Shown here in pieces: positions 47,509-55,924 of a stretch of 64,000 nucleotides of DNA (its first letter is position 1; every line of letters begins with the position of its first letter). Under the pieces are notes generated by a model. That model was given only the letters and a program-made list of their open reading frames with translations. It ran no database searches and had not been told where the DNA came from. The position numbers and the translations under genes are program-made. The stretch is from Pseudomonadota bacterium (lineage in GTDB: Bacteria > Pseudomonadota > Alphaproteobacteria > Rhizobiales > Xanthobacteraceae). Location of the stretch: NCBI GenBank assembly GCA_041694745.1, contig JBGFSD010000060.1, forward strand, positions 10,812-74,811, written 5' to 3'.

Positions 47509-48696
47509 ATGAACATGCGCGAGGCCGTTATCGTCTCCACCGCCCGCACCCCGATCGGCAAGGCCTATCGCGGCGCCTTCAACAACACCGAGGGCGCGAC
47601 CCTCTACGGCCATGCCATCGAGCACGCCGTGAAGCGTGCCGGCATCGACGGCGCCGAAGTCGAGGACGTGGTGATGGGCACGGCACTCCAGCAGGGCACG
47701 ACCGGCGGCAACATCGCGCGCAAGGCGCTCCTGCGCGCAGGCCTGCCGGTTTCGGTCGCGGGCACCACGATCGACCGCCAGTGCGCCTCCGGCCTGCAGG
47801 CGATCGCGCTCGCCGCGCGATCGGTGATCTTCGACGGCGTCGAAATCGCGGTCGGCGGCGGCGGCGAGTCGATCAGTCTCGTGCAGAACGAGCACATGAA
47901 CATTTTTCACGCGGTCGATCCCGAACTGAAGAAGATCAAGGGCGACGTCTACATGCCGATGCTGGACACCGCCGAGGTCGTCGCCAAGCGCTACAACATC
48001 TCGCGCGAGGCCCAGGACGAGTATGCGCTGGAAAGCCAGCGCCGCACCGCGAGCGCGCAGCAGGGCGGCCGCTTCAAGGAAGAGATCGCGCCGATGACCA
48101 CCAAGATGGCGGTCGTCGACAAGGCGACGAAGGAAGTTTCTTACAAGGACATCACGCTTTCGCAGGACGAAGGCCCGCGCCCCGATACCAGCGCCGAGGG
48201 CCTGGCATCGCTCAAGCCGGTACGCGAAGGCGGCTCGATCACCGCTGGCAACGCGAGCCAGCTCTCCGACGGCGCGAGTGCCGCCGTCATCATGAGCGCG
48301 GAAATGGCCGCGAAGAAGAACCTCAAGCCGATGGGCATCTTCCGCGGCTTCGTCGCCGCCGGCTGCGAGCCGGACGAAATGGGCATCGGACCCGTCTATG
48401 CGATCCCGCGCCTCTTGAAGCGTCACGGCCTCAAGATCGACGACATCGACATCTGGGAACTGAACGAAGCCTTCGCGGTGCAGGTGATCTATTGCCGCGA
48501 CAAGCTCGGCATCGACCCGGAAAAGCTCAACGTCTCGGGCGGCTCGATCGCGGTCGGCCATCCCTATGGCATGACCGGCGCGCGGCTCGCGGGTCACGTG
48601 CTGATCGAAGGCAAGCGCCGCAAGGCGAAATACGGCGTCGTCACCATGTGCGTCGGCGGCGGCATGGGTGCCGCGGGCCTGTTCGAAATCCAGTAA
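47509..48696 (+). CDS. acetyl-CoA acyltransferase (thiolase)
   Basis: 395 aa with active-site contexts [10 protein letters not shown], a C-terminal [14 protein letters not shown], and CVGGGMG. Confidence 0.9.
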
Positions 48697-48710
48697 GCGG
48701 AGCGCGAGCG

Positions 48711-49910
48711 ATGGATCTCAATTTCACCAAGGAAGAACTCGCGTTCCGCGACGAGGTGCGCGACTTCTTCAAAAAGAACGTGCCCGCGGAAACGAAGAAG
48801 AAGCTGATCGAAGGCCGCAAGCTGGAGAAAGCCGACATCGTCGACTGGCAGCGGATTCTCAATAAAAAAGGCTGGGCAGTGTACCAGTGGCCGAAGCAGT
48901 ACGGCGGCACCGGCTGGACGCCGGTGCAGAAGTACATCTTTCTGGAAGAGTTGCAGCGCGCACCCGCGCCCGATCCGCTGCCGTTTGCGGTCAGCATGGT
49001 GGGGCCGGTGATCTACACCTTCGGCAGCGAAGAACAGAAGAAGCGTTTCCTGCCGCGCATCGCCAATCTCGACGACTGGTGGTGCCAGGGCTTCTCGGAG
49101 CCGGGTGCGGGCTCCGACCTCGCCGGGCTCTCGACGAAAGCCGTGCGCGAAGGCGATCACTGGATCATCAACGGCCAGAAAACCTGGACCACGCTCGCGC
49201 AATATGCCGACTGGATTTTCGTGCTCGCGCGCACCGACCCGAAGGCGAAGAAGCAGGAAGGCATTTCCTTCATTCTCGTCGACATGAAGACGCCGGGCAT
49301 CACCGTGCGGCCGATCCAGCTGATCGACGGCGGCAAGGAAGTGAACGAGGTCTTCTTCGACAACGTGAAGGTGCCCTACGAAAATCTCGTCGGAGAGGAG
49401 AACCGCGGCTGGGATTACGCGAAGTTCCTGCTCGGCAACGAGCGCACCGGGATTGCGCGCGTCGGTATCTCGAAGGAACGTATCCGCCGCCTGAAGGAGC
49501 TTGCCTCGGTCGAAGTCTCCGGCGGCAGGCCGATGATGGAAGACCCGCGCTTCCGCGCGAAGGTCTCCGAGATCGAGGTCGAACTGAAAGCGCTCGAAAT
49601 GACCCAGATGCGTGTCGTCGCCGCCGAGGGAAAGCGCCGCGACAACAAGCCGGATCCCGCCTCCTCGATCCTGAAGATCAAGGGCTCGGAGATCCAGCAG
49701 AACATCACCAATTTGCTGATGGAAGTGGTCGGGCCGTTCGCGCTGCCCTTTGCGGGCGAGGACGAGGCGGGCTCGAAGGAAATTCCGGTCGCGCCCGACT
49801 ACGCCGGGCCGCTCGCGCCGATCTATTTCAATTACCGCAAGGTTTCGATCTACGGCGGGTCGAACGAGATTCAGAAGAACATCATCGCAAAAGCGATCCT
49901 CGGTCTCTGA
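48711..49910 (+). CDS. acyl-CoA dehydrogenase
   Basis: ATG at 48711 (MDLNFTKEELAFRDEVRDFF...), 399 aa, with a C-terminal IYGGSNEIQKNIIAK catalytic-base context. Confidence 0.85.
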   Translation: MDLNFTKEELAFRDEVRDFFKKNVPAETKKKLIEGRKLEKADIVDWQRILNKKGWAVYQWPKQYGGTGWTPVQKYIFLEELQRAPAPDPLPFAVSMVGPVIYTFGSEEQKKRFLPRIANLDDWWCQGFSEPGAGSDLAGLSTKAVREGDHWIINGQKTWTTLAQYADWIFVLARTDPKAKKQEGISFILVDMKTPGITVRPIQLIDGGKEVNEVFFDNVKVPYENLVGEENRGWDYAKFLLGNERTGIARVGISKERIRRLKELASVEVSGGRPMMEDPRFRAKVSEIEVELKALEMTQMRVVAAEGKRRDNKPDPASSILKIKGSEIQQNITNLLMEVVGPFALPFAGEDEAGSKEIPVAPDYAGPLAPIYFNYRKVSIYGGSNEIQKNIIAKAILGL

Positions 49911-49942
49911 GGCCGCGGCGGAAGAAGAAGAAAGACAAGCGT

Positions 49943-51094
49943 ATGGATTTCGAGTTTTCCGAAGAGCAGCAACTTCTCAAGGACAGCATCGAGGGGCTGC
50001 TTACCGACAAATACGGCTTCGAACAGCGCAAGAAGATTCTCGATGGCGCGGACGGCTGGAGCCGCGAGATCTGGAAGCAATATGCCGAGCTCGGCATTCT
50101 CGGCCTGCCGTTCGCCGAAGAGCATGGCGGTATCGGCGGCGGCCCGGTCGAGACCATGATCGTGATGGAACAGATCGGCAAGGCGCTCGCGCTCGAGCCC
50201 TATCTGCCGACGGTCGTGCTCGCGGGCGGCTTCCTCCGCCGCTTCGGCACCGACGCACAGAAGAACAAGTACCTGCCGCAGATCGCCGAAGGCAAGATCA
50301 CCGGCGCGTTTGCGCATACCGAGCGCCAGTCGCGCTACGACCTGTTCGACGTGAAGACCACCGCGAAACCTTCCGGCAACGGATTTGCGCTCGACGGCCA
50401 GAAGAGCGTGGTGCTGAACGGCGATCAGGCGGATTTCGTCGTCGTCACTGCGCGCGTTTCCGGCAACCCGCGCGACCGCGACGGTCTCGGCCTGTTCATC
50501 GTCGATGCAAAGGCACCCGGTGTGACGCGCCGCGGCTATCGCACGGTCGACGGGCTCACCGCCGCCGAGATCCAGCTATCCGGCGTCAAGGTTGACGCAG
50601 ATCAAGCGATCGGCAAGCCGGGCGCGGCATATCCTCTGATCGAGCAGGTCGTGGACGACGGCATCGCGGCGCTGTGCGGCGAGGCGGTCGGCGTGCTCGC
50701 CGCGCTCACGGAAGCGACCACCGACTATCTGCGCACGCGCAAGCAGTTCGGCGTCAACATCGGTTCGTTTCAGGTGCTTCAGCATCGCAACGTGGAAATG
50801 CTGATCGCAGCAGAACAGGCGAAAAGCATGGCGTTTCTTGCCACCATGATGGTCAACGAGAAGGACGCCGTCGCACGCCGCAAGACGATTTCGGCGGCAA
50901 AGACTCAAATCGGCCGCTCGGCGCAATTCGTCGGCGAGCAGGCGATCCAGCTCCACGGCGGCATCGGCATGACCATGGAATTGAAAGTGGGCCACTGGTT
51001 CAAGCGCGCGACCGCGATCGACATCCAGTTCGGCGACGCCGATTATCACCTCGAACAATTCGGAAATATGGGCGGGTTTGAAACCGCGGCCTAA
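49943..51094 (+). CDS. acyl-CoA dehydrogenase family protein (likely partner subunit of the preceding one)
   Basis: ATG at 49943 ([20 protein letters not shown]...), 383 aa with an ACAD fold ([14 protein letters not shown]). Confidence 0.8.
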
Positions 51095-51107
51095 GGGAGA
51101 GAGAAAA

Positions 51108-52334
<1,227 letters not shown>

Positions 52335-52356
52335 TCGCAAGTCTCTAGTAACTCAA

Positions 52357-52544
52357 ACTCGTCATGGCCGGGCTCGTCCCGGCCATCTCGATTCCTGCGC
52401 CGCCTCCCCCTTGTCATCACCGGACGGCCGCGTCCCGCGCAAATCTGGAACTCGTCCTGGCCGGACTCGTCACGGCCATCCACGCCTTAGTGAATTGCAA
52501 CGCGGAAAGGCGTGGATGCCCGGCATAAAGCCGGGCATGACGAG
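52357..52544. repeat. two adjacent REP-like units of the 12389/22995 family
   Basis: ACTCGTCATGGCCGGGCTCGTCCCGGCCATC..., then ACTCGTCCTGGCCGGACTCGTCACGGCCATCCACGCC...GGCGTGGATGCCCGGCATAAAGCCGGGCATGACGAG. Confidence 0.7.
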
Positions 52545-52571: not shown

Positions 52572-52600
52572 TTGACTCATTCGATTCCTATGATTATATT
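52572..52600 (+). promoter_or_regulatory. near-consensus sigma70-type promoter TTGACT-17 nt-TATATT whose -10 is the IS target site
   Basis: TTGACT is at 52572-52577 and TATATT at 52595-52600. The 8-bp target duplication ATTATATT (52593-52600) overlaps the -10 element. Confidence 0.45.
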
Positions 52601-52757
52601 CGCAGTTATATACTTGACATAGCCACTACCGATTCGTAGTAGGCACGCGACAGGCCGGCGTGCGCGAAATGTCCCGTATATGGCTGCCAACCATAGAAAG
52701 GTTGGCCCATGTCGGGCGAATATTTCCGAGAGCCGACAGAAGAAGAAAAAGCGCTTC

Positions 52758-53426
52758 TTACTCCGCAGGCCCTGTCTGCGGGGGTGTCGGCATATTCGGA
52801 GTTTGTGGGGACAATGGCTCCAGAACTTTTAGTGACTCAAATTGTTCTGGCAGTCGTTCGAGTATCCAAGGATGAAACTCAGGCTTTAGGGGCCACGCCC
52901 AACCCGCCGTCTCGATCTGACAGCGGAAAATAATTCGTACCAGATCGCGCCCGTAGTTGCCGACCATCAGAATATCGTCTGCGATTTTGCGGAGTCTGTC
53001 GCGGTCAACAAAGTATTCGTTGAACTTATGTGGCGTGTCCTTCTTGGGCTTTTGAAGTTTGAGGTGGAAGGTGGTTTCGTTGCCGCTCTCCAGTTTCACG
53101 AGCGTAACAATTGAGTGCATCACAATATTTCGATTGTTGTAGGCTTGGCTGAAAGTCTTGGTGAAATGATTGAGCGCTCCAGCAAGCGGCTCAAATGATA
53201 TTTTGTTTTCGACAAAGCTATTGAAGGTGGCGATTCTCACCTCATTGTTGGCCTTACTGAAAACTATGGCCCCGGTCTTTTCGTCATCGAACCACGTTAG
53301 AAAAAGCGTCCGCAGAATATGCTCCATATAGTTGAACTGGAGCGCTATCATGCCTATTGCGTGGATCAATTCCTGGTGGCTGGTGCTATAGCTGCCATGC
53401 CAACTTTCAAGCTCGGGTTCGCTCAT
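52758..53426 (-). CDS. IS passenger protein A, hypothetical, with a HEPN-like RNxxxH motif
   Basis: I prefer the internal ATG (MSEPELESWHGSYSTSHQELIH..., 222 aa; coordinate derived from the track frame, +/-1). It looks all-helical, with AYNNRNIVMHS at residues 96-106, which fits the Rx4-6H HEPN signature. There is no clear SD and the N-terminus is uncertain. Confidence 0.5.
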   Translation of the reverse strand: MSEPELESWHGSYSTSHQELIHAIGMIALQFNYMEHILRTLFLTWFDDEKTGAIVFSKANNEVRIATFNSFVENKISFEPLAGALNHFTKTFSQAYNNRNIVMHSIVTLVKLESGNETTFHLKLQKPKKDTPHKFNEYFVDRDRLRKIADDILMVGNYGRDLVRIIFRCQIETAGWAWPLKPEFHPWILERLPEQFESLKVLEPLSPQTPNMPTPPQTGPAE

Positions 53427-53586
53427 GGTTAAAGAGACTCGCTCGAAAAAAGAGACTGAAAAGGTACGGGACGCAGCGCTATTGCGAGCGCTAATGAGCC
53501 CGCCCGCGCCCCACCAGCCTACCGCCAAAAAGAAGGTGAGTCGCAAGAAGAAAAAGGCTAAAGTCCTCAGAGGGGGATAGCGCTGG

Positions 53587-54366
53587 ATGGCTGACGCAGA
53601 TCGCGGCGGGATTAGATTCGAACTTAAGAATTCCAAGCCTGTTGATCTGCTCGATCTAACGACGGCACTTTCTGCTTTTGGCGATGCATATCAGGATTAC
53701 GTTGTCCGGTCCGGGTTCGACGGGGATCGGGGAAACGTTCGTCTTTATGTTCAAGAAATAAGAACCGGCTCCATCATCGCCCAGCTTTCGCAGTTGGCCG
53801 ATCAAGCATCGTTTGTGCTCGATCATATTGAGGTGGCCGCTGGCTTCATCTCCAATTTGAACGACGTGCTACAATACTTTCTGGGGCTTCCGAAGCCAGC
53901 CTCAGCCGAGGCTCCCACGAAGCGTCAGGCGCAACAGGCCATGGCAATTATGGAGCCTGTAGCAAAAGACAATGCTTCACAGCTGTTTTTGAACGTAAAC
54001 GTGCAGGGTGACGTACACTATCACCAACATATTTACACCTCGCAACAGGCCAATGCGATTCAGAATAGCGCTCGTCGCTATCTCGGGCCTCAATTGCCAA
54101 CGTCCCAGACCCTGCGCGATCAGTTGCTAACACTGTTCCAGGTTCGAATAGCAAAGGAAAAGGTTGGCTATAGGGGCGTTATTCAAACGGTGTCCTCGCG
54201 CCCCGTAATGCTGACGTGGGCGAGCGACGAGGTGAAGCAACAGATTATCGACTACCCAGAGAACCCGCTTCACAAGGTTTTCTTGGTTGATGTTGATATG
54301 ACGGCAGTGGACGGGAAACCGAGTCTATATCGCGTCCTTGATGTTAAGGACGTTTCCGACCGCTGA
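53587..54366 (+). CDS. IS passenger protein B, hypothetical (259 aa), divergent from passenger A
   Basis: The ATG is preceded by GAGGGGGA. I recognise no domain. Codon usage is AT-richer than in host genes. Confidence 0.5.
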   Translation: MADADRGGIRFELKNSKPVDLLDLTTALSAFGDAYQDYVVRSGFDGDRGNVRLYVQEIRTGSIIAQLSQLADQASFVLDHIEVAAGFISNLNDVLQYFLGLPKPASAEAPTKRQAQQAMAIMEPVAKDNASQLFLNVNVQGDVHYHQHIYTSQQANAIQNSARRYLGPQLPTSQTLRDQLLTLFQVRIAKEKVGYRGVIQTVSSRPVMLTWASDEVKQQIIDYPENPLHKVFLVDVDMTAVDGKPSLYRVLDVKDVSDR

Positions 54367-54410
54367 ACTTTCGCCAGCGCGCAAATCTAAGCGCGTTCTG
54401 CCTTCTGCAC

Positions 54411-55355
54411 TTAATTGCTACCAACTTGTCGATACGTGAGGCGCTTACCTTCAGCACCCTGAAGGGCAGTTACCGCACGTTCTCCATCGGTCACGCCGAG
54501 AGCGGAGCGGTTGTTGTAGCGAAATTCAAATTCGGTGAGGTAACGCTGTAGGTGCTGCTCCGAGCAGAACCCATAGACGCCCTTCATGCCTTTTTTGAAA
54601 TTGCCAAAGAAGTTTTCAACGTGGTTCGTGGTCTGGCCGTCTTTGCCGACATACTCACCACGACCGTTCCAGCCGTGGTGTACGGTTTTGTGATCGGCAA
54701 ACTCTTTGCCGGTCTGGACGTACAGACGGCTTTCGTCCGTATGCAATTCGCTATCACGCGAAGCATTGGTAACAAGAATGTTGCGGACGGTTTCGGCGTT
54801 CGCGGTCTTAACGTGGAACACGCGGGCTTTGCCCTTCGGTTCGACAAGAGCAACGATTGAGCGCTTGTGGCGATGGCCTTTCTTGTAGGACTTAGCCCGC
54901 TTGGAGTTGCCGTAATAGGTTTCGTCGGCCTGTACGATCTTGCCCTTGCCGCCTAGCGGGTCAGAGCCAGCCATACCCGGTTTCATGGCCTCACGGATGC
55001 GGTGAGCCATAAACCACGCGGTCTTGTAGGTAATGCCAAGCTGGCGATGCAGCTGGTGAGCGCTGATACCGCGCTTGCTGGATGCCATGAGGTGGAAGCC
55101 AAGCATCCACTTGGTCAGCGGAATTTTAGAGCGCTCAAAAACGCTGCCAACAGTCACAGTGAAGTGCTGGCGGCATGAATTGCACTGGAACAGACCCGGA
55201 CGGTGAGACTTACCTTCAAGGCGCTTGAGATTAGCGCCATCGGCCTCACCGCAATGCGGGCAGTAAGGACCGTTCGGCCAGCGGATGCCTTCGAGGTGCT
55301 CCCGCGCCTTGTTTTCATCGGTGAAGATCGGGTTGGTCAGTGCTGCGCTTGTCAT
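54411..55355 (-). CDS. IS1595 family transposase
   Basis: 314 aa with an N-terminal zinc ribbon CPHCG...CNSCRQHFTVTVGSVFE and an ISXO2-like DDE domain (VQADETYYG...). The start is 49 nt from the right inverted repeat. Confidence 0.9.
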   Translation of the reverse strand: MTSAALTNPIFTDENKAREHLEGIRWPNGPYCPHCGEADGANLKRLEGKSHRPGLFQCNSCRQHFTVTVGSVFERSKIPLTKWMLGFHLMASSKRGISAHQLHRQLGITYKTAWFMAHRIREAMKPGMAGSDPLGGKGKIVQADETYYGNSKRAKSYKKGHRHKRSIVALVEPKGKARVFHVKTANAETVRNILVTNASRDSELHTDESRLYVQTGKEFADHKTVHHGWNGRGEYVGKDGQTTNHVENFFGNFKKGMKGVYGFCSEQHLQRYLTEFEFRYNNRSALGVTDGERAVTALQGAEGKRLTYRQVGSN

Positions 55356-55924
55356 AGCGATTTTATACCCTCGGAAGGGTGGCTATGTCAAGTATATAAC
55401 TGCGATTATATTCCTATTCATTCCGGCCCATTAAGGGGCACGTCGCGCGGCGTGTTCGATGTGCGGGCCGGAAGCGGTGGCTGCGTGCAAGGCGTAACGC
55501 ACTTTGCGCGCAGCGGCTGAAGTTGCATGGTTCCGGCGAGCCTGCCGCTCGTCACAGGGCCTTTCTTGGCGGCTTTGCCTGGAACGCGTGCCAACGCAAG
55601 TACGGCAAGGCAGAGAAGGCCCGCCAGCGGAGGATAGATCGGTAAGTCCTCCGGGGATCATGCGAAGCAGGCCGTAACCCATCGCGCGCGGGACGCCGGA
55701 AGTGCTCCGGCTTTCGCGGTGACGACAACTCATCTGCACTTTCTCTCCTTTCGTGCAGATGGCCGTGGAGGACGGTAAATCCTCCGGCGTCCCCGCCGCC
55801 CTTAGCGCGCTTGGCACTTACGCCATTCGCGCAAATAGAAGGCGGCGCGAGCAAAACTCGGTGCTAAATGCGCGCGAGAAGGATTTACGCTGTTTGAAAA
55901 ACGAACCAGGAAACAACCGTGGCG

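Follow-up and report, generated by a model that had tools for sequence, protein, structure and literature searches.

What are the two passenger genes that are transcribed divergently between positions 52758 and 54366 of a 64,000-nucleotide (nt) stretch of an alphaproteobacterial contig (JBGFSD010000060.1, Xanthobacteraceae; the whole stretch is hereafter the window), and do they form one system? A first-pass annotation, made from the letters alone, had proposed a mobile, horizontally acquired two-component cassette for stress or defence, in which an all-helical, HEPN-like protein (A) would be paired with a 259-residue partner (B) in a possibly undescribed combination. We found that both genes are cargo of a complete insertion sequence (IS) of the IS1595 family, that A is probably a very divergent HEPN protein and that B belongs to a phage protein family that was not found with A outside this IS lineage. 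The explanation that we favour, with moderate confidence, is an IS1595 element with defence cargo that holds a HEPN-like effector, A, and an independently acquired phage accessory gene, B.

Both genes are cargo of an IS1595-family element

The mobile and horizontally acquired character of the locus was borne out by its architecture. The GC content, about 63% over the window, falls to 50–54% across 53001–55000, and a complete element of about 2.83 kb (52589–55416) is delimited here by 38-nt terminal inverted repeats (IRs). The left IR, at the cargo end (52589–52626, + strand), pairs with the right IR, at the transposase end (55379–55416, − strand), with 92% complementarity. The IR core TTATATACTTGACA has two sites in the window, one in each IR, and about 0.01 chance matches would be expected. 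The sequences that flank the element, TCGATTCC (52581–52588) and TTCATTCC (55417–55424), are identical at 6 of 8 positions and are possibly an imperfect 8-bp target duplication; the ends of the element are uncertain by about 2 nt.

Four genes lie between the IRs: the transposase, B, a small open reading frame (ORF) of 51 codons and A. The transposase (54411–55355, − strand, 314 residues), a DDE enzyme with an N-terminal zinc ribbon, matches PF12762 DDE_Tnp_IS1595 (1.2e-30), PF12760 Zn_ribbon_IS1595 (2.8e-13) and NF033547 transpos_IS1595 (1.2e-55), all above the cut-offs. These domains, together with terminal IRs that recur in related copies, place the element in the IS1595 family. Because both A and B lie between the transposase and the left IR, they are passengers, as the first-pass annotation had supposed.

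The IR core also defines a group of related elements. A metagenome scan with the 19-nt core CGCAKTTATATACTTGACA returned at least 120 loci, and the left-IR core CGCAGTTATATACTTGACA is common to at least 120 metagenome loci and to two further loci, L005 and L007. We retrieved 27 complete elements, counting the window's own and L007; with L145 added, 25 are distinct.

Protein A is probably a very divergent HEPN protein

The ORF listed for A (52758–53636, − strand) starts with TTG and has 292 codons, whereas an internal ATG at 53426 gives a protein of 222 residues (52758–53426, − strand). We rejected the 292-residue form, because its extension overlaps the small ORF and the start of B and because homologues begin at the internal ATG. 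The 222-residue protein contains SQAYNNRNIVMHS, including R99 and H104 within AYNNRNIVMHS (R99-N-I-V-M-H104), the motif on which the HEPN-like call had been based.

Searches of Pfam, NCBIfam, PADLOC and PHROGs gave no match to A, and a word-indexed protein search with A returned A itself only. An exhaustive phmmer search of 1.84 billion cluster representatives yielded 155 A-family proteins at E ≤ 1e-3, mostly of about 200 residues. In an alignment of 76 of these homologues, four residues (G25, E35, R99 and H104) never vary, N98 and N100 reach at least 90% conservation (consensus ENRNILMHS), and a C-terminal LPxKPxxPxxL tail is conserved across the family. Loss of the arginine or the histidine among homologues, which would have counted against the HEPN-like call, was not seen in these 76 sequences.

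An AlphaFold model of A (predicted local distance difference test score (pLDDT) 92, predicted template modelling score 0.85) has helices at residues 15–43, 49–58, 61–75, 79–103, 142–172 and 182–191. R99 and H104 lie at the C-terminal end of helix 79–103 in this model, and a three-stranded beta insert (residues 106–141) follows directly after the motif helix, so that the earlier description of A as all-helical does not hold.

A survey of HEPN proteins (PMC3710099) describes the motif as Rx4-6H, in which R is usually followed by N, D or H, and places it at the end of core helix 3 and the start of the loop to helix 4. The same survey reports that a second conserved position, acidic and upstream of the motif (as a rule Ex3[KR] in helix 2), is shared by many HEPN families and that an insert between helices 2 and 3 may take the form of a helical hairpin. 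In A, the invariant R99 is followed by the polar N100, and the motif ends predicted helix 79–103, after which come the beta insert and helix 142–172. Judged on the predicted structure, A agrees with the survey except for the helix that holds the invariant glutamate: E35 is in the first modelled helix, as E35-x3-R39 in the window's protein, with K or R at +4 in some family members only. Circularly permuted or renumbered helices would reconcile this placement, which is speculation on our part.

Marginal matches point in the same direction. CARF_HEPN models account for 4 of 10 marginal PADLOC matches of A-family members. We also searched with RNxxxH proteins of sibling ISs. For ten of these, mostly from the equivalent slot, three of four marginal Pfam matches are to HEPN models (HEPN_RiboL-PSP, 0.0069 and 0.037; HEPN_Cthe2314, 0.086). 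For an equivalent set of ten that includes the A-like protein of L145, all three marginal PADLOC matches are of this kind (CARF_HEPN, Csx1 or RTasHEPN); two of them cover the RNxxxH motif, as the third probably does. HEPN models are few in relation to the size of each library, so that chance is an unlikely explanation of their frequency among the matches. The A profile itself weakly detects several of the RNxxxH proteins of sibling elements.

Several results weigh against this reading. A and its 76 relatives gave no significant match to a HEPN model in Pfam, NCBIfam or PADLOC, and none of the 76 matches a Pfam HEPN model at E ≤ 0.1. The A-family profile has no match among PDB sequences, and searches of PDB sequences with two cargo proteins of sibling elements yielded nothing relevant either. 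A Foldseek search of PDB with the A model gave a best E of 0.077 and no HEPN protein in the top 50; Foldseek performs poorly on small helical bundles that contain inserts, and this null is a failed test rather than a disproof. In BFVD, Foldseek found no significant or annotated match to A, the best being an unnamed phage protein with a TM-score of 0.46 normalised to the query and 0.63 normalised to the target. To these are added the helix of E35 (the first, where the HEPN description has helix 2) with its partial Ex3[KR], the fact that no antitoxin or sensor was identified for A, and the presence of A-family genes at L006 and L015, where there is neither an IS element nor an obvious defence island. 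The group of at least 120 IR-core loci is, moreover, a lower-bound sample.

Could A be no nuclease at all? It would then have a novel alpha/beta fold, in which the R/H motif serves binding or some other chemistry, and A and B would be unrelated hitch-hikers. The failure of Foldseek to find a significant HEPN or other fold despite a pLDDT of 92, the lack of significant profile matches, the sizeable beta insert and the proline-rich LPxKPxxPxxL tail, which is no HEPN feature, are all what this alternative would lead one to expect. We consider it highly doubtful, because the RNxxxH motif is invariant and in a HEPN-like position, with N after R and an invariant E upstream, because the marginal matches are almost exclusively to HEPN models and because the cargo context is rich in defence genes. 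The HEPN-like call of the first-pass annotation is strengthened by the conservation of the motif, its position at a helix end and the marginal HEPN matches, although it gained no significant profile or fold match. Alignment and model together suggest that A is probably a very divergent member of the HEPN superfamily, without membership in any described HEPN family.

Searches at the nucleotide level added little to the family. A tblastn search of phages and plasmids with A gave no match. A degenerate DNA pattern for ENRNILMH had 5 chance matches and no A-family gene in viral contigs, and 16 matches in genome contigs, of which L015 alone is real. A single-protein scan with the A homologue P0278 gave no match. 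At L006 (5498–6693), a non-IS A homologue, P0154, is divergent from an apparently orphan HicB-like antitoxin gene.

Protein B belongs to a phage family

B (53587–54366, + strand, 259 residues) has a strong ribosome-binding site, as had been noted: the Shine–Dalgarno sequence GAGGGGGA (53570–53577, + strand) lies 9 nt before its ATG, inside the last codons of the small ORF. B matches the PHROG family phrog_9226 (5.7e-39) over almost its full length, with residues 10–256 aligned to profile positions 15–257 of 261; PHROG labels this family 'unknown function'. We found 138 homologues at E ≤ 1e-3. The AlphaFold model of B has a pLDDT of 89, and Foldseek found no fold match to it in PDB. A match to the NCBIfam model LAPAL_fam reaches 18.4 bits, below the cut-off of 60, and covers the N-terminal residues 18–78 only; 34 of 50 B relatives match the same model by their N terminus, also below the cut-off (best E 5.1e-07).

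The B family is encoded on 26 IMG/VR viral contigs and also occurs alone in chromosomes. We assessed its phage context from deposited annotation, the gene calls of the collection and a bulk Pfam count, since greedy ORF calls in high-GC contigs gave spurious neighbours. In Bordetella phage PHB09, the B homologue follows the replication genes and precedes a BrnT toxin, a Rha regulator, an HNH nuclease and the small terminase subunit. On viral contigs, the commonest neighbours of B within 3 kb are CI-type repressors (Peptidase_S24 with a helix-turn-helix domain), and the rest are variable. By family and neighbourhood, B is best described as an accessory ('moron') gene of temperate phages, and it may be expressed in lysogeny, with a role in exclusion, defence or counter-defence.

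In plasmid records, the best match to B is in a Neisseria chromosome record filed as a plasmid, in a region without annotation. This locus, L182 (NZ_CP119140.1, 1536375–1537109), encodes a B homologue with 29% identity at 98% coverage; the 2.17-Mb Neisseria gonorrhoeae record is filed in PLSDB as a plasmid and is evidently a chromosome.

A and B are not a dedicated pair

If A and B formed a two-component system, as first proposed, their families would be expected to occur together. We searched six-frame ORFs with profiles of both families, with 6–8 kb of flank where the contig allowed. Thirty independent B loci were available, four from look-ups of encoding contigs (three metagenomic, one from an NCBI genome assembly) and 26 from viral contigs, and at none of these was an A-family ORF found within the flank fetched. 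Conversely, B was not found at the A loci L005–L013 and L015, nor at any of the A loci outside the IS lineage, and no conserved partner was found among the neighbours of B. The two-component reading thus fails on co-occurrence at the loci compared, and a dedicated A–B system is not supported. Nor is there support for a new pairing of a HEPN protein with a partner. A HEPN/MNT (HepT–MntA) arrangement is not seen either: the element has no nucleotidyltransferase, and B and the small ORF have no match of nucleotidyltransferase type in Pfam, NCBIfam or PADLOC.

One locus goes against a complete separation of the two genes. L145, the sole other B-family locus among the IR-core matches listed, is of the same IS lineage and has the gene order of the window, transposase, B, small ORF and RNxxxH gene, so that a link between A and B within the sub-lineage of the window and L145 is conceivable. 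Identity between the two loci is low, 24% for B and 56% for the transposase, and the RNxxxH protein of L145 has no detectable pairwise similarity to A.

A conserved small ORF lies between A and B

The first-pass annotation had read the roughly 160 nt between A and B as a divergent regulatory region. This region is filled by a conserved ORF for a basic protein of 51 residues, MVKETRSKKETEKVRDAALLRALMSPPAPHQPTAKKKVSRKKKKAKVLRGG (53425–53580, + strand), which that annotation had missed and which makes the supposed two-gene cassette one of three genes. Its ATG overlaps that of A within CATG (53425–53427, + strand, and 53426–53424, − strand), and its stop codon (53578–53580) is 6 nt from the B ATG at 53587. 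The short repeats noted earlier are present: the two copies of AAGAGACT (53432–53439 and 53450–53457) are the codons K-E-T used twice within the small ORF, and AGCGCT-N6-AGCGCT is at about 53476–53493.

A segment of about 140 nt after the transposase stop codon recurs in nearly all elements and encodes, on the opposite strand, a basic protein of 47–62 residues with the consensus M.K....LE.TKRLM.AL.RMPPKPHEEMK.GK followed by a K/R-rich tail. Every one of the 27 complete elements that we retrieved (25 distinct) has a homologue of the small ORF, as do 51 of 120 IS-end loci among the matches listed. We considered a structured RNA or a promoter as explanations of this conservation and rejected both, because the frame stays open in 49 unique copies and the variation follows codon position, with entropies of 1.10, 1.04 and 1.56 and the third position most variable, as expected of a coding sequence. 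A representative of the small ORF has no match in Pfam, and the family profile has none in PDB. Both in the window and in L145, B follows the small ORF directly and in the same orientation. As the final codons of the window's small ORF contain GAGGGGGA, the two genes are probably organised as an operon.

The small ORF is also found with an A homologue away from recognisable IS sequences. At L010–L013, it stands start-to-start with the gene for P0278 (seen on at least 24 contigs) beside a P22-type portal gene, where neither an IR nor a transposase is recognisable. A prophage may have captured part of an IS here. The small ORF would be either an IS component carried along with the captured fragment or a more general companion of such cargo.

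These observations bear on whether A, the small ORF and B could be a three-gene module of one IS sub-lineage, in which the small protein or B neutralises A, senses for it or regulates it. The order of the four genes recurs in L145 despite the low identities of B and the transposase, the small ORFs of the window and L145 are the two most divergent of the 49 and neither has the typical EMKLGK segment, translation of B appears to be coupled to that of the small ORF, and the start-to-start arrangement with an A homologue persists at L010–L013 where the rest of the IS is undetectable. Set against these points, B is found alone at 30 loci and A-family genes are found without B at at least 8. About half of the elements have RNxxxH cargo, so that two insertions of B into such elements would have a chance of about 0.2, and the similarity of the L145 RNxxxH protein to A is undetectable. 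Furthermore, the small ORF accompanies unrelated cargo, including PD-Lambda-5, AbiL-like ATPases and proteasome-like proteins, and therefore appears to be a component of the IS rather than a specific partner of A. On balance, we regard a three-gene module as rather unlikely.

The C-terminal tail of A (LPxKPxxPxxL, residues 192–205, about 52812–52853, − strand) resembles the core of the small ORF, (R)MPPKPHEEMKL (residues 24–30), and both contain [LM]P.KP. This shared motif could be a docking motif or a coincidence.

Sibling elements carry known anti-phage systems

To place A and B among the cargo of their relatives, we compared the elements of the IS group. Among the matches listed, transposases 46–77% identical to the window's are present in 77 of 120 IR-core loci. 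Inverted pairs of the IR core sit 1.9–3.7 kb apart, and the 25 distinct complete elements among the matches listed measure 1.97–3.74 kb, from which it follows that all 25 carry cargo. An R[NH]xxxH protein is encoded in about 13 of these, in most cases at the position that A fills in the window; among 16 unique proteins adjoining the small ORF, the R[NH]xxxH motif is at residues 89–131. A-family genes have the slot and orientation of A in L005, L007/L175, L068 and L136. The A homologue P0281 is in an element with the same IR core and a transposase 59% identical to the window's, laid out as in the window with the transposase, a reverse-strand middle gene and the A gene toward the distal IR. The closest relative of A, P0122 (39% identity), is on a 1.2-kb contig that ends in a near-identical IR and a conserved hairpin.

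Other siblings carry known systems, which supports the defence context that had been proposed for the locus. L090 and L170 encode PD-Lambda-5 A (1.6e-80) and B (3.1e-115), L101 and L134 an AbiLi-like ATPase (7.8e-46)/PDC-M38A together with PDC-M38B/DUF3226, and L096 PDC-M38A (4.3e-41). Further cargo comprises a D12 methylase, AAA_15/AAA_21 and DUF3226 proteins, a proteasome-like protein and several unannotated proteins. The subgroup is widespread in soil bacteria, and its constant parts are the transposase, the small basic protein of about 50–60 residues and a slot for exchangeable cargo. The closest plasmid-borne transposase is a decayed copy from Mesorhizobium.

Two further observations concern sibling cargo. 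One element encodes a 496-residue protein with weak matches to Argonaute-associated PNTD models. L062 (1044–1571) and L068 (1340–1816; both in extracted, transposase-oriented coordinates) have an extra protein of 159–176 residues between the transposase and the small ORF; it begins MAAE(V/L)IAGLG and by eye resembles a coiled coil with Cys/His pairs.

The cargo of siblings also helps to judge whether A might instead be an addiction toxin that stabilises the IS by post-segregational killing or by acting against excision, and not an anti-phage protein. HEPN-type toxins and other toxin–antitoxin pairs do recur as apparently integral passengers of the Tn3 family (PMC7157771), the position of the A-type gene is fixed in related elements, and the two-gene cargo of L107 (228 and 133 residues) looks like a toxin–antitoxin pair by eye alone. 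No cognate antitoxin is assignable to A, however, the same slot in sibling elements holds bona fide anti-phage systems, and post-segregational killing would be of little use to a chromosomal IS. We therefore think this role quite unlikely for A.

A broader proposal is that the IS1595 subgroup is specialised in transporting small immune or toxin genes. The small protein and the start-to-start junction would then be a module for the expression or control of cargo, possibly a general neutraliser or regulator; A would be the first member of a new HEPN clade, with a beta insert and perhaps a circular permutation; and the small ORF, B and A of the window and L145 would form a three-part system with a phage-derived sensor or decoy. 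We consider this proposal as a whole unlikely.

Under the explanation that we favour, defence cargo with an independent phage gene, the element would transpose by its DDE transposase, transcribed from a promoter of the form TTGACA-18 nt-TATAAA. A would occupy the standard slot, beside the distal IR and start-to-start with the small ORF, and would be expressed from within the small-ORF region. As a single-domain, divergent HEPN-like protein, it would dimerise, and R99, N100 and H104, together with E35, would form a metal-independent RNase site in the dimer. Like other HEPN proteins, A would then be a toxic, growth-arresting or abortive-infection effector. B would have been acquired separately, downstream of the small ORF and co-transcribed with it, and would be neither an antitoxin nor an obligate partner of A.

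Terminal sequences and insertion site

A candidate promoter read from the sequence (55362–55391, − strand) has its TTGACA inside the right IR, followed by 18 nt and TATAAA, and ends a few nt before the transposase ATG; it is probably the transposase promoter. A promoter scan returned related sites in both IRs, and each IR has an inward-facing TTGACA (55362–55391, − strand, and 52606–52619, + strand). With TTGACA/TATAAA so near the ATG, a near-leaderless transposase mRNA would result, and the hexamer at the cargo end is directed antisense into the 3′ end of A.

A hairpin, GCCAACC-N7-GGTTGGC (52686–52706, − strand), lies 52–72 nt downstream of the A stop codon. We rejected it as a classical intrinsic terminator, as no T-run follows the stem. 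It is kept almost base for base in L005 (about 1050–1090), where the A proteins are 39% identical, and the non-coding sequence around it, between the A stop codon and the IR, differs far less between the window and L005 than the A proteins do. Such conservation suggests either a functional element of the IS end or swapping of A alleles. An Rfam scan of the element gave a chance match to RNase_MRP only (E 0.97).

The IS inserted between genes, with an acyl-CoA dehydrogenase gene on one side and a short-chain dehydrogenase gene on the other, and interrupted neither. Palindromes that resemble repetitive extragenic palindromes adjoin the site: a cluster at 52356–52544, immediately to its left, has direct and inverted copies of units of about 30–38 nt (CTCGTC.TGGCCGG.CTCGTC.CGGCCATC). 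Upstream of the IS, 47509–52334 holds genes of fatty-acid beta-oxidation type (a thiolase and three acyl-CoA dehydrogenase-like ORFs), which are ordinary core metabolism.

Significance and comparison with known systems

Should A prove to be a HEPN RNase, a major family of effectors in immunity and toxicity would gain a clade of about 155 sequence clusters that is without annotation and escapes the current Pfam, NCBIfam and PADLOC models. The context of the IS group matters more than A itself. A soil-abundant IS with one transposase carries cargo that includes validated anti-phage systems (PD-Lambda-5, AbiL-like), which suggests that plain insertion sequences, besides large transposons, islands and prophages, spread defence genes. 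The remaining unannotated cargo of the group would then be a cheap source of new defence genes, and the small ORF is an uncharacterised component of the group. In the literature library that we searched, there was no paper on a cargo-bearing IS1595 subgroup of this kind. Three things appear to be new: a HEPN-like family of considerable size that lacks annotation, the small ORF conserved in the IS group, and a soil IS1595 subgroup that always has conflict-type cargo.

Compared with single-protein HEPN RNase effectors and toxins such as AbiV, ApeA, RnlA and HepT (PMC3710099), A is similar in its R-N-x3-H motif at the end of a helix, its upstream acidic residue, its mainly helical model, its mobility and its defence-rich context. 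It differs in that it has no significant sequence or fold match to described families, its acidic residue belongs to the first helix of the model, and it has an LPxKPxxPxxL tail and, after the motif, a beta insert of a kind described to date chiefly in Csx1. There is also no MNT, RnlB-type or other known partner beside A. B, for its part, resembles phrog_9226 over almost its full length, and the resemblance to LAPAL_fam ('putative phage structural protein') is confined to about 60 N-terminal residues, below the cut-off in B and shared by 34 of 50 relatives. In phages, B sits among early, immunity and accessory genes and not structural ones, and unlike the phage-borne phrog_9226 genes, the B described here is on an IS.

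Passenger genes in the IS1595 family are already known, ISfinder recording passenger-bearing members of ISNwi1 type and ISNha5 type, as is defence cargo on transposons, for example on Tn7-like elements. The element described here shares with other passenger-bearing IS1595 members the DDE_Tnp_IS1595 domain with a zinc ribbon, the IRs, a size larger than that of a bare IS and an alphaproteobacterial host. In contrast to them, its subgroup has a conserved small antisense ORF, and all complete elements sampled carry cargo, including anti-phage systems and a large number of HEPN-like genes. Transposons with HEPN toxins have precedents as well: the toxin–antitoxin pairs found in Tn3-family transposons include HEPN-type ones (PMC7157771). 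Like transposons of the Tn3 and Tn7 types, this IS combines a fixed core with variable cargo of conflict systems that includes HEPN-type genes, but it does so in a much smaller element, with one transposase and one to three cargo genes.

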